The position numbers were made by a program, and so were the translations under genes. DNA of 33,016 nt, taken from Escherichia coli. Lineage in GTDB: Bacteria > Pseudomonadota > Gammaproteobacteria > Enterobacterales > Enterobacteriaceae. The stretch lies in assembly GCF_003334385.1 (NCBI RefSeq), contig NZ_QOWN01000050.1. One strand, given 5' to 3'. This document shows, in pieces, positions 11,472 through 21,404 of the stretch (its first letter is position 1; every line of letters starts with the position of its first letter). Under the pieces are notes generated by a model that saw only the letters and a program-made list of their open reading frames with translations, had not been told where the DNA came from and made no database searches.

Positions 11472-12878
11472 ATGCGTACGTTTAGTGGCAAACGTAGTAC
11501 GCTGGCGCTGGCTATCGCCGGTGTTACAGCAATGTCGGGCTTTATGGCAATGCCGGAGGCTCGCGCCGAAGGATTCATCGACGATTCAACCTTAACCGGC
11601 GGTATCTATTACTGGCAGCGTGAACGCGACCGTAAAGATGTTACCGACGGCGACAAATACAAAACCAACCTTTCTCACTCCACCTGGAATGCCAACCTCG
11701 ATTTTCAGTCCGGTTATGCTGCTGATATGTTCGGCCTTGATATTGCTGCGTTTACGGCGATTGAAATGGCGGAAAACGGCGACAGCTCCCACCCGAACGA
11801 AATCGCGTTTTCAAAAAGTAATAAAGCCTATGACGAAGACTGGTCCGGCGACAAAAGCGGTATAAGCCTGTATAAAGCTGCGGCCAAATTTAAATACGGT
11901 CCGGTTTGGGCGAGGGCAGGTTACATTCAGCCAACTGGTCAAACGCTGTTAGCGCCGCACTGGAGCTTTATGCCAGGTACTTATCAGGGGGCGGAAGCCG
12001 GGGCGAATTTTGATTACGGCGATGCTGGTGCGTTGAGTTTCTCCTACATGTGGACCAACGAATACAAAGCGCCGTGGCATCTGGAAATGGATGAGTTTTA
12101 TCAGAACGATAAAACCACCAAAGTTGATTATCTGCACTCCTTTGGGGCGAAATACGACTTCAAAAATAACTTCGTACTGGAAGCGGCATTTGGTCAGGCG
12201 GAAGGGTATATCGGTCAATATTTTGCCAAAGCCAGCTACAAATTTGATATCGCCGGTAGCCCGTTAACCACCAGCTACCAGTTCTACGGTACCCGAGATA
12301 AAGTTGACGATCGCAGCGTCAACGACCTTTATGACGGCACCGCCTGGCTGCAAGCGTTGACCTTTGGTTACCGGGCGGCTGACGTAGTGGATTTGCGCCT
12401 CGAAGGCACCTGGGTTAAGGCTGACGGTCAGCAGGGATACTTCCTGCAACGTATGACTCCAACCTACGCTTCCTCAAACGGTCGCCTGGATATCTGGTGG
12501 GATAACCGTTCTGACTTCAACGCCAACGGCGAAAAAGCGGTCTTCTTCGGTGCGATGTATGACCTGAAAAACTGGAATCTTCCAGGCTTCGCCATCGGCG
12601 CTTCCTACGTTTACGCATGGGATGCTAAACTTGCGACCTGGCAGAGCAATCCGGATGCGTACTACGACAAAAACCGGACTATTGAAGAGTCTGCCTACAG
12701 CCTAGATGCGGTCTATACCATTCAGGACGGTCGCGCCAAAGGCACGATGTTCAAACTGCATTTCACCGAATACGACAACCACTCCGACATCCCAAGCTGG
12801 GGCGGTGGTTACGGCAACATCTTCCAGGATGAGCGTGACGTGAAATTTATGGTAATCGCACCATTCACCATCTTCTGA
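11472..12878 (+). CDS. chiP: chitoporin, OprD-family outer-membrane porin, 468 aa
   Basis: 468-aa ORF with a signal peptide ([32 protein letters not shown]) and a C-terminal aromatic residue (..FTIF), typical of a beta-barrel. Confidence 0.9.
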
Positions 12879-18549: not shown

Positions 18550-19044
18550 ATGAAGACCAACAGGAGTCTGGTCGTCATAGTGTCACTAATTACCGCCACA
18601 TTACTGCTGACTGCATGCGCCCAACCTGAACAATCATCATTAGCTGGCGACTGGTTACTGACCCCTAAAGATAAAACCAGAGGATTAACGGGTAGCATTG
18701 CGGTAAATATTGCACCTTTCCGGTGTAAGACAAATTGCCGTGGTGATAACTTACCTGATAATACCCGCCGCTGGCAGTTGTCAGGCGGGAACGAAAAAGA
18801 ACTTACTTATCTTCATAATATGTCAGCACAAGAAAAGGTCGGTTTAAATCCCGGTTGGCAATGCTACACCTCATTTTTTATGCGGGTTTGCCAGGGCAAG
18901 CCCGGCACTCGACCGATAGTCAATGAGGATTATGTCAGCGAAAGCGGATTTTTTGGCTCGATGATGCATGTCGGGATTATTGAGTTACGACGCTGCCAGT
19001 CAGAAAATTGCCAGCAAGAATTGAAAGCGATAAATACACATTAA
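18550..19044 (+). CDS. ybfP: lipoprotein YbfP, 164 aa
   Basis: Signal peptide with lipobox LTAC (MKTNRSLVVIVSLITATLLLTACAQ). Confidence 0.8.
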   Translation: MKTNRSLVVIVSLITATLLLTACAQPEQSSLAGDWLLTPKDKTRGLTGSIAVNIAPFRCKTNCRGDNLPDNTRRWQLSGGNEKELTYLHNMSAQEKVGLNPGWQCYTSFFMRVCQGKPGTRPIVNEDYVSESGFFGSMMHVGIIELRRCQSENCQQELKAINTH

Positions 19045-19084
19045 AATAGTGAGTCCGGGAATGAAACCCGGACCTGAACATGTC

Positions 19085-19735
19085 TTATTGCGTGAATGTT
19101 TCTTTCATTTGATACTGCATTTCCCAGAGTTCAGTAAGCGAAATAACTTTTCTTGTTCTTGCTTCTTCACTTTGTACCCATAAGAAAGGGTAGAACGTGA
19201 AGGCTTCCGTTGCCGATAATTTTATTACGTCTTCTCGCCATTGCTGCCATCGTACATTTTCATAGAAGGTATCTAAATCACCGGATAATGCCCACTGAAG
19301 AAACTCAGAATATCCAACTTCCAGACTTTCCCAATTCAGCGTATCTGGCGCAAAATAATAAACGCAGCCAGTATCTTCCCCAAGATCGCCACCATTAAGA
19401 GCAAAAATTCCCCCTGCGACATCGTCAGCGATGGGTAAAGCCCGCACGCCTGCGAATTCAGGGCGTTGTGTCCAACTTACTGGATCTCGTGGCAACCGGG
19501 GGTGACCAGATCCTGCTATGCGTAACCAACCATTATCAATCAGCAGACCTCCGGAGCCATAGACAAGCGCACCCATCGGTGATTTTGTTGTCACCTGTAA
19601 TTGATAAAGTGCGGTTTCGGCTAAATCTTTATTAACCGGTAAGAGTTCGGTATGGTTTGTGGCGTCTTTTAACCAGTTCTGGATTATTGGCCAGGCTGAA
19701 TCTTCAGTATTTACTAACTGATTCATTTCACGCAT
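19085..19735 (-). CDS. ybfG: uncharacterised protein YbfG (I recall DUF2625 family), intact here, about 216 aa
   Basis: The track ORF runs 19085..19843; I place the start at the internal ATG (19733..19735), which has AAGGAG 9 nt upstream. Confidence 0.6.
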   Translation of the reverse strand: MREMNQLVNTEDSAWPIIQNWLKDATNHTELLPVNKDLAETALYQLQVTTKSPMGALVYGSGGLLIDNGWLRIAGSGHPRLPRDPVSWTQRPEFAGVRALPIADDVAGGIFALNGGDLGEDTGCVYYFAPDTLNWESLEVGYSEFLQWALSGDLDTFYENVRWQQWREDVIKLSATEAFTFYPFLWVQSEEARTRKVISLTELWEMQYQMKETFTQ

Positions 19736-19856
19736 CGCTACTTGCTCCTTGTGTGCTACGGTGTCATTTATGATGAGGAATTGTATGGAACATTTTTTAA
19801 ATATTAAGTTCCTTATATTTGAATAAAAAATGACTTTATCCATACATTGCCACTTT

Positions 19857-19989
19857 TTTCAAAGCATAAACCGATACCCAATACCGGTTTCAGTAATAAA
19901 ATGGCGAGGCCGGGCCGGATCCTGTTCCAGTTTTTGTCGCAGATGCCCCATATAATTACGCAAATAGTTGCTGTGTTCGATCGCGTTTA
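19857..19989 (-). pseudogene. 3' remnant of a kdpE-like response regulator (C-terminal winged-helix, about 44 codons)
   Basis: About 90 percent nucleotide identity to the 3' end of kdpE at 24195..24330, same orientation, in frame, with the stop conserved: LNAIEHSNYLRNYMGHLRQKLEQDPARPRHFITETGIGYRFML. No N-terminal receiver domain or start codon. I think K-12 annotates this as pseudogene ybfI but am not certain. Confidence 0.6.
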
Positions 19990-20044
19990 GACCCTACATC
20001 TGCCGGATGCGGCATAAATAACGAACTATTTGCCAACAAACAGA

Positions 20045-20075
20045 AAGGGCGATCATTCAATCGCCCTTTTTTACT
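20045..20075. terminator. rho-independent terminator downstream of potE
   Basis: GGGCGAT-CATTCA-ATCGCCC hairpin with T-rich flanks on both strands. Confidence 0.75.
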
Positions 20076-20083
20076 TTGTTTTA

Positions 20084-21404
20084 TTAACCGTGTTTATTTT
20101 TCAGTTCAAAGCGTGGTGATACCAGACCATACAGTGTCCAACCAAGGAAGGTCACGATGGAACCGTACAGCATGGCTTCTTCCCCGGATGAGTACAGCGC
20201 ATAAAAGCTATACATCGCGCCAACAAAAGCAACAAAGTTTGCAACTTTCGCTTTTGAGGGGGGCACATTAGCGACCTTCTGAATAATGACTAATGCCGCC
20301 ATTGACAGAATATACGGAATGATATTGGTCACCACGGCCAGGTTAACCAGCACGTTGAACTGACTGTTTAGCGACGGGCTAATGGTCATCAGTGCCAATC
20401 CACTCTGAATAATCACAATGGTCAACATTCCCTGCACCGGTGCATCCACTTTGGTTACACGGGAGAAAATTTTAGGGAAGTAGCCTTCATCAGATGAAGA
20501 TTTAAACACCTGGGCAATGGTGAACTGCCAGCCAAGTAGCGAACCGCAGCAGGACATCACCATCAGCGCCATAATGACTTTACCCACTTCCGGCGTGAAC
20601 ATCTGCGCGAAGGCCAGACCAAATGGTGCCGTTGAATTTGCCAGCTCCATATTTGGCACAATCCCGGCAATCACGTTGGTGGAGACGATATAAATCACCG
20701 CCGCACCTAACGTACCGCCGAGTACCGCGATTGGCACATTACGTTCCGGGTTTTCCACTACATCAGTATTCGCACACGCAGACTCCAGACCAAGAAAAGC
20801 TCACAGCGTCATAGCGATGGAAGAAACCTACCGCACTGAAGAACGGTGCATGATGCGGATTCCAGGAATCAACGTACAGCGTCGGGCTAAACCAGAACCA
20901 GCCAATAATGCACAGACCGACGACCGGAATAATGACCCCCCACACGGTAATGCTACTGATTTGCCCGGTAATGCGCGCACCACCAAAGTTAGCCACGGTA
21001 CAAATCCACAGCACCCCGATGGTCGCAAGACCAATCTGCACTGGCGACAAACTCGCGCCGAGCAGTTCGGTGCCGTAACCAACCGCCGAAATAGCAATCG
21101 CGACGTTAGCAATCAGCAGTGAGACGCCGTAGGTATAGTTCGCCATAAAGTTACCGGATTTACCGAAAGCATACTCGGCATAACCGCCCATACCGCCTGA
21201 TTTACGGCTGAACATACCGCATTTTGCGAATGCCCATGCCAGTGCCATTGAGCCTACGGCTGTCACCAGCCAGGAGATAATTGAGATTGTCCCGACTTCG
21301 GCAAGCTTTGTCGGCAGCATGATGATACCGGAGCCCATCATGTTGACCATCGTCAGTATGGTTAACTGAACGACGCCCATTTTGTTCGATTTAGCCTGAC
21401 TCAT
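20084..21404 (-). pseudogene. potE: putrescine-ornithine antiporter PotE, reading frame disrupted
   Basis: Two track ORFs in different frames (20763..21404 and 20084..20758) together cover the 439-aa PotE. The frame breaks after ..FFSAVG by one extra T in a T-run (+ strand AAA at 20824..20826), and the restored frame reads SSIAMTL-stop-AFLGLESACANTDVVENPERNV, with TGA (+ strand 20801..20803) where Trp is expected. Confidence 0.8.

Follow-up and report, generated by a model that had tools for sequence, protein, structure and literature searches.

Does the ybfG locus of Escherichia coli hold a working gene or a dead one, and, if it works, what would its product do? We addressed this question in a 33,016-nucleotide stretch of E. 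coli chromosome (contig NZ_QOWN01000050.1 of assembly GCF_003334385.1; hereafter the window), which carries asnB, nag, glnS, chiP, fur, fldA, seqA and pgm, then ybfP and ybfG, and after these potE, speF, the kdp operon, ybfA and the start of rhsC. The listing of open reading frames (ORFs) showed one uninterrupted frame for ybfG at 19085..19843, 252 codons long, starting with ATG and with the stop counted in the end coordinate. The initial annotation had described the same open frame, leaving unstated that it lies on the minus strand. Since only ~0.03 ORFs of at least 252 codons would be expected by chance in six frames over 33 kb at the base composition of the window, the length of this ORF is not a chance product. 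Judging from the sequence comparisons set out below, we put at about 0.9 the probability that the window carries the wild-type ybfG allele and that K-12 lost the gene through an amber codon at Trp70 together with a Gly109Val replacement.

In the genome of K-12 MG1655 (NC_000913.3), ybfG (b0691) is annotated as a pseudogene at 715947-716597, and the RefSeq label for the locus in a K-12 derivative reads 'internal stop'. Older literature gives the locus as two genes, 'ybfH ybfG, b0691-0' (PMC2731931), and a Keio delta-ybfH::kan strain is on record (PMC4759930). The current annotation and the older two-gene listing together bear out a tentative statement in the initial annotation, namely that some references show ybfG as split or as a pseudogene. 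When aligned with MG1655, the window was identical at 649 of the 651 nucleotides of ybfG, and the two base differences fell in codons 70 and 109 (Table 1). At codon 70, which identifies the K-12-type split pseudogene, the window reads TGG and not TAG. In a 40-sequence alignment, Trp70 was at least 90% conserved and Gly109 was invariant. K-12 carries the Trp70 amber and Gly109Val, which explains the pseudogene label in the reference and the former division into ybfH and ybfG. Between the complete 33 kb and MG1655 there were 18 substitutions and 2 indels, so the window is not the K-12 reference; the earlier expectation that it holds the intact form and departs from that reference was correct on both counts.

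The window ybfG was nucleotide-identical to the SCU-104 allele (0 differences), and the intact protein, WP_001208814.1, is annotated in M505, SCU-104 and ML35. Allele frequency was assessed with exact 61-mers around codon 70, searched in 5426 complete E. coli genomes: the window form was present in 1277 and the K-12 form in 364. The carriers of the K-12 form among the matches listed (n=14) look like laboratory derivatives of K-12 (MG1655, MC4100, ER1709, AML002 and others), and BL21(DE3) is one base off the K-12 61-mer. Intact ybfG is the common wild-type state and not a rarity, and the amber codon seems peculiar to the K-12 lineage. Reference genomes that also show one intact ORF are found only outside K-12 (M505, SCU-104, ML35), in agreement with the statement in the initial annotation that some references, not all, are split. 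Sequence error as the source of the intact frame, an idea prompted by private indels in homopolymers at other sites of the window, was rejected, as many independent genomes match the ybfG region at 100% identity. The difference between the window and K-12 is already documented in public annotation, and the finding of an intact ybfG, correct as it is, is ordinary and of small practical value. It bears on the use of ybfG as a 'neutral pseudogene' control (bioRxiv 10.1101/2022.09.01.506172), the window holding the ancestral working allele.

Which ATG starts the gene was decided by several lines of evidence. From the second in-frame ATG, at 19735, the frame runs for 216 codons and is preceded by a Shine-Dalgarno sequence, AAGGAG (19750-19745); the initial annotation likewise gave 216 codons from an ATG with a Shine-Dalgarno sequence. 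All 39 aligned homologues (39/39; Enterobacterales, Burkholderiales, Bacteroidota) start at Met37 of the long ORF, the family models of Pfam and NCBIfam begin at residues 37-40 of the 252 amino acids, and the RefSeq coding sequence in other strains (M505, SCU-104, ML35) is 651 nt. Ahead of ATG 19843, no Shine-Dalgarno sequence was seen; the guanine-plus-cytosine (GC) content of the 36-codon extension is 30.6% versus 44.4% for ybfG, and a sigma-E-type promoter motif sits inside the extension, downstream of ATG 19843. The true gene is the 216-codon form from ATG 19735, and the 36 upstream codons are very probably untranslated. That the true coding sequence is instead the full 252-codon ORF from ATG 19843 is scarcely credible: the frame is indeed open and at least one UniProt E. 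coli entry (A0A854BGV6) has 252 amino acids, but no homologue aligns with the first 36 residues, and the starting points of the family models, the missing Shine-Dalgarno sequence, the low GC content, the position of the promoter motif and the RefSeq length all speak against it.

We then considered whether the open frame is maintained by selection. When ybfG was compared with a natural allele of 96% identity (strain 2021CK-00607), 10 changes were synonymous (143 sites) and 10 were replacements (505 sites), i.e., a ratio of replacement to synonymous change (dN/dS) of ~0.28. None of the 10 replacements fell on an invariant column; both K-12 changes are on conserved columns. This pattern indicates purifying selection on ybfG where it is retained. 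Compared with the window, SCU-104 and ML35, K-12 has six substitutions of its own (6896, 8987, 19410, 19527, 22384 and 31051); two of the six lie within the 651-bp ybfG, where ~0.12 would be expected from length, an excess that fits relaxed constraint after inactivation.

The locus itself is part of a hypervariable, low-GC stretch from pgm to kdpE. A 1151-bp query comprising ybfG and its flanks (18950-20100) was held over at least 80% by 1774 of the 5426 genomes, and ybfG is an accessory gene that about two thirds of E. coli genomes do without; potE is present in 4146 genomes, compared with about 1650-1774 for ybfG. The interval from pgm to kdpE has at least four arrangements among E. coli genomes: pgm-ybfP-ybfG-ybfI-potE-speF-kdpE in the window and K-12; pgm-potE-speF-kdpE in O157:H7; pgm-ybfP-kdpE in TUM14759; and arrangements with ybfG broken, by frameshift or deletion in strain 200177 and by an IS1 insertion in VL7S7. 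ybfP, likewise variably present, is missing from O157:H7 and occurs without ybfG in TUM14759. The GC content of ybfG and ybfP is 44-45%, compared with 51% for the window. This dispensability, with absence from so many genomes and several independent inactivations, weighs against the function proposed for YbfG below. It also favors the alternative that the frame is a still-open relic, no longer selected in the window strain and intact by accident, as do the amber codon in K-12, the lesions in 200177 and VL7S7, and private inactivating changes in potE and kdpC of the window. We judge this alternative very improbable, however, given the dN/dS of ~0.28 relative to a divergent natural allele with every invariant residue kept, the identical protein in at least 3 unrelated genomes, the occurrence of the exact codon-70 61-mer in 1277 genomes, and the intact promoter motif and Shine-Dalgarno sequence of ybfG. 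A retained wild-type allele remains our reading of the locus.

When would such an allele be expressed? The sigma-E-type motif (Table 1) is a pattern match in the window. The ybfG promoter is among 28 sigma-E promoters identified in K-12 by rapid amplification of cDNA ends (RACE) (PMC1312014), and we infer that the window motif corresponds to this mapped promoter. In a second study, 'ybfH ybfG' was up 3.9-fold and 25.2-fold under sigma-E overproduction in K-12 and, within the portion of the table covered, only degP exceeded this induction (PMC2731931). Assignment of ybfG to the sigma-E regulon combines a promoter motif found in the window with induction data that come from K-12 and not from the window strain. 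A dead gene is thus the source of one of the transcripts that sigma-E induces most strongly in K-12 (25-fold, PMC2731931), and the biology of YbfG therefore needs non-K-12 strains or a repaired K-12. In Shigella flexneri, ybfG is among the PhoP-dependent genes (PMC5775216).

To what family does the product belong? YbfG matched NCBIfam NF008494 (PRK11408.1-1) with an expect (E) value of 1e-154 and 512 bits against a cut-off of 278, over model positions 1-216 of 216 and amino acids 37-252 of the long ORF. Pfam DUF2625 (PF10946) was matched with E 1.5e-87 by the 216-residue form (model 1-206 of 207) and with 2.7e-87 by the long ORF. Membership in DUF2625 thus follows from a full-length profile match above the curated cut-off. 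YbfG has this single domain and, from its N-terminal sequence alone, looks cytoplasmic. The family comprises 1473 clusters (50% identity, E ≤1e-3), with members in Proteobacteria, Bacteroidota, Firmicutes and others that are nearly always single-domain and 210-250 amino acids long. Identity between E. coli and Bacteroidota members is 45-55%, and 40 sequences from several phyla share 27 invariant columns, including the polar residues T50, S52, D67, R72, R83, D104, D105 and N114. Conserved motifs are QVTTRSPMGA, D-x-GWLR-x-LGSG, ADD-x-x-GGFFA-x-NGG and YYFAPD. No paper mentioning DUF2625 or PF10946 was found in the literature searched.

An AlphaFold2 model of YbfG, built from the 40-sequence alignment, reached a predicted local distance difference test (pLDDT) value of 90.5 and a predicted template modeling (pTM) score of 0.88. 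The structural matches to this model, a set that a Foldseek search returned as well, were SUKH-fold structures: Tdi1, a DUF1851 type VI secretion immunity protein from Bacteroides (8g0k_D, score 12.4); Atu4351, a 'type VI immunity protein' from Agrobacterium (6itw_A, 11.1); Lin2918 (2icg_A, 10.3); YobK (2prv_B, 9.3); BF1740 of the SMI1/KNR4 family (3d5p_B, 8.3); FBXO3 (9kbf_C, 7.5); Knr4 (5j1b_A, 7.2); PSPTO_5518 (2pag_A, 7.2); Syd (3ffv_B, 5.4); and the RhsPI immunity protein (8bd1_B, 5.1). The predicted structure of YbfG has the SUKH fold, the alpha/beta fold that Smi1/Knr4, Syd, YobK and Tdi have in common. Among the top 50 Foldseek matches in AFDB50, there were only DUF2625 proteins, and no functional annotation was gained. 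A defense-system or phage origin of YbfG and YbfP was dropped as a candidate, as PADLOC and PHROGs gave no matches for either protein.

The predicted fold suggests a way in which YbfG could work. The documented SUKH mechanisms that we considered all act by binding another protein, and YbfG would act like other SUKH proteins, by tight binding of a partner protein that is thereby blocked. The likeliest partner would be an incoming nuclease-type toxin from a competitor, YbfG being a Tdi- or Imm-SUKH-like orphan immunity protein whose expression would increase upon envelope damage with sigma-E activation. There is a precedent in the Ntox15 nuclease, whose core is split by an inserted Tdi protein; orphan Tdi proteins, too, give protection from such effectors (PMC10470768). 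By this analogy, we favor, tentatively and at somewhat less than even odds, an orphan immunity protein that blocks such a partner. More doubtful is the wider proposal that DUF2625 is an unassigned branch of SUKH immunity proteins, orphan and switched on by sigma-E, that protects against Ntox15-type or similar nuclease effectors, and that K-12 lost this protection through the Trp70 amber codon. If the fold does mean an immunity function, ybfG would be a stress-induced orphan immunity gene in E. coli. A SUKH/Tdi-like fold and an immunity role for DUF2625 were absent from the literature searched; both, drawn from a predicted structure and a few gene contexts, would make a modest addition to a well-known superfamily.

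Gene contexts of homologues also bear on this proposal. The homologue P0166 joins a DUF2625 part (7-209) and a genuine SMI1_KNR4 domain (245-383, E 2.4e-7) in one protein, with a further SMI1_KNR4 gene 2 kb away, and another homologue, P0152, is a tandem DUF2625 protein. On a Flavobacterium contig (L009), only 20 bp separate DUF2625 from a downstream DUF2314 gene, and a gene of the SUFU family is three genes away; Zhang et al. 2012 assigned the DUF2314 and SUFU families to Imm34 and Imm-SuFu, in 'heterogeneous polyimmunity loci' (PMC3482391). Fusion, tandem and Flavobacterium locus favor an immunity-type role, each being a single example in a family whose members are mostly solitary. Other copies in Bacteroidota are found among small unannotated genes arrayed on the same strand, or next to genes of conjugative elements; in Yersinia, a copy belongs to a mobile island that also contains CbtA/CbeA, antirestriction, IS110 and Mrr genes. 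Apart from these contexts, the DUF2625 gene of Pantoea phytobeneficialis is directly preceded by a gene with Sde182_NH-like and Sde0182_C domains (L007 4438-5970), and the genome with the DUF2625-SUKH fusion has a like gene ~4 kb upstream of the fusion (L025 42-1661); this may be coincidence or weak linkage.

Several observations weigh against a role in immunity, or against the fold assignment on which it builds, in addition to the dispensability described above. In the window, ybfG has ybfP and a kdpE fragment as neighbors and no toxin gene next to it, and an adjacent toxin gene was likewise missing from 10 of 10 homologue neighborhoods inspected; YbfG is therefore at most an orphan immunity protein. 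Proteobacterial DUF2625 copies are solitary. No PDB chain was matched by sequence, either with the single protein or with the 40-sequence profile. The SMI1_KNR4 match on YbfG is marginal (E 0.14-0.19, residues 98-137, spanning ADD-x-x-GG-x-FA-x-NGG...YYFAPD), and none of 40 DUF2625 members reached E 0.1 with SMI1_KNR4; the same region in the DUF2625 part of P0166 gave a similarly marginal SUKH_6 match (E 0.11). Conservation across the family is far above that of typical immunity proteins and could mean a conserved ligand or an enzymatic site. Finally, the SUKH-fold proteins Syd, Knr4 and FBXO3 have non-immunity roles.

Two alternative functions were weighed. By analogy with Syd, which binds SecY, YbfG could serve the envelope-stress response as a SUKH protein of housekeeping type that binds a partner and acts at a cytoplasmic face of the envelope-biogenesis machinery during sigma-E activity. 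This is in keeping with the RACE-identified sigma-E promoter (PMC1312014) and the 25-fold induction (PMC2731931), with the presence of Syd and Knr4 among the structural matches, with the stand-alone state of most homologues, which have no toxin partner, and with the high conservation across phyla; even so, we consider it somewhat unlikely. An enzyme or small-molecule-binding protein on a SUKH-like scaffold, which the many polar or charged residues among the 27 invariant columns, arranged in motifs over several phyla, and the 45-55% identity between E. coli and Bacteroidota members could suggest, seems improbable: no enzyme scored above the SUKH set in the structural search, no catalytic Pfam or NCBIfam family was matched, and no conserved metabolic operon context was seen in the neighborhoods inspected. 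An orphan immunity protein, tentative as it is, remains the function that we favor.

The immediate surroundings of ybfG are summarized in Table 1. The hairpin beyond its stop codon, found by consensus scan, is probably a terminator common to ybfP and ybfG. For ybfP, Pfam gave a marginal lipobox match only. ybfP and ybfG as a toxin-immunity pair found no support, the genes being convergent and no toxin domain having been found. The translation of ybfI, which ends ...HFITETGIGYRFML followed by a stop, lies directly upstream of the long ybfG ORF and in the same frame. The speFL-speF-potE block is flanked by direct repeats of the kdpE end (ybfI 19858-20002 and kdpE 24194-24338). Directly downstream of potE is a perfect bidirectional terminator-like hairpin, AAAGGGCGAT...ATCGCCCTTT (20042-20071), and a REP-like GCCGGATGCGGC element lies between ybfI and potE at about 20001-20015.

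Table 1. Features of the ybfG locus with their positions in the window
Feature	Position	Strand	Description
ybfP	18550..19044	+	164-amino-acid lipoprotein gene, convergent with ybfG; 45.5% GC, same low-GC variable segment
Hairpin between convergent ybfP and ybfG	19052..19074	-	GC-rich, after the ybfG stop; terminator-like site
ybfG coding sequence	19085..19735	-	216 codons plus stop, 651 nt; DUF2625 protein identical to RefSeq WP_001208814.1
Codon 109 of ybfG	19409..19411	-	Window GGA (Gly), K-12 GTA (Val); base 19410 is C in the window and A in K-12
Codon 70 of ybfG	19526..19528	-	Window TGG (Trp), K-12 TAG (stop); base 19527 is C in the window and T in K-12
Shine-Dalgarno sequence of ybfG	19745..19750	-	AAGGAG, 9 nt upstream of ATG 19735
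36-codon in-frame extension of the ybfG ORF	19736..19843	-	Most likely untranslated leader and promoter DNA
Sigma-E-type promoter motif	19784..19812	-	GGAACTT-N16-TCCATA, 49 nt upstream of ATG 19735
ybfI	19858..20002	-	145-bp fragment of the kdpE 3' end, ~90% identical to the kdpE end (24194-24338)

Elsewhere in the 33 kb, the changes private to the window relative to the closest complete genomes amount to 5 transitions and 2 homopolymer indels. In potE, on the minus strand, there is a one-base insertion at 20824 (GAAGAACC to GAAGAAACC) and a substitution 23 bp away at 20801, and the gene is split into ORFs 20084..20758 and 20763..21404 of 224 and 213 amino acids. The potE changes were found in none of the 5426 complete E. 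coli genomes, the best identity being 97.8%, in 4146; the break reflects either a true loss of the putrescine-ornithine antiporter, private to the window strain, or a sequencing error in a homopolymer. In kdpC, also on the minus strand, a private change of TGG to TAG at 28012 turns Trp36 into an amber codon, and the longest remaining ORF has 149 amino acids (27546..27995); the amber 61-mer was exact in no complete E. coli genome, with a best identity of 98.4%, in 1811. Upstream of kdpF, at 32045, the T-run of ...TTTATACTTTTTTTACACCCCGCC... has 6 T, versus 7 in K-12, SCU-104 and ML35, in a T-rich stretch that we take to lie in or beside the KdpE-binding region of the kdpFABC promoter. The kdpC amber and the shortened T-run suggest either a Kdp system that is decaying in the window strain or homopolymer errors. 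A substitution at 27551, in the kdpC/kdpD overlap, makes KdpC Glu190Lys and turns the annotated kdpD start from ATG into ATA; it is also present in SCU-104, where RefSeq still starts kdpD at that position. In chiP, Asp248Gly (12214) is private with respect to K-12, SCU-104 and ML35, and the gene has a second private substitution, the synonymous CTG to CTA at 12704.

How, then, does the window gene compare with known systems? RefSeq WP_001208814.1 of non-K-12 E. coli shows no difference: the window allele encodes that protein. The K-12 ybfG (b0691; formerly ybfH b0690 plus ybfG b0691) occupies the same locus, has 651 nt and the same flanks (ybfP, the ybfI kdpE fragment and potE), but is a dead gene with TAG at codon 70 and GTA at codon 109, while the window gene is intact. 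Tdi1 and Tdi2 (8g0k, 8fzz) and Atu4351 (6itw), type VI secretion immunity proteins of the DUF1851 type, neutralize Ntox15 deoxyribonuclease effectors; their likeness to the YbfG model is structural only, identity being just 11-12%, and YbfG falls outside the Tdi/DUF1851 family, with no DUF1851 match in Pfam scans and no adjacent Tde/Ntox15 gene. The SUKH-1 (SMI1/KNR4) immunity proteins YobK, Lin2918 and RhsPI (Zhang et al. 2011, PMC3113570) have sequence similarity to DUF2625 that is not significant, and DUF2625 is a separate Pfam family for this reason. It is further set apart from SUKH-1 by an extra N-terminal helical part and by a much stronger conservation across phyla.
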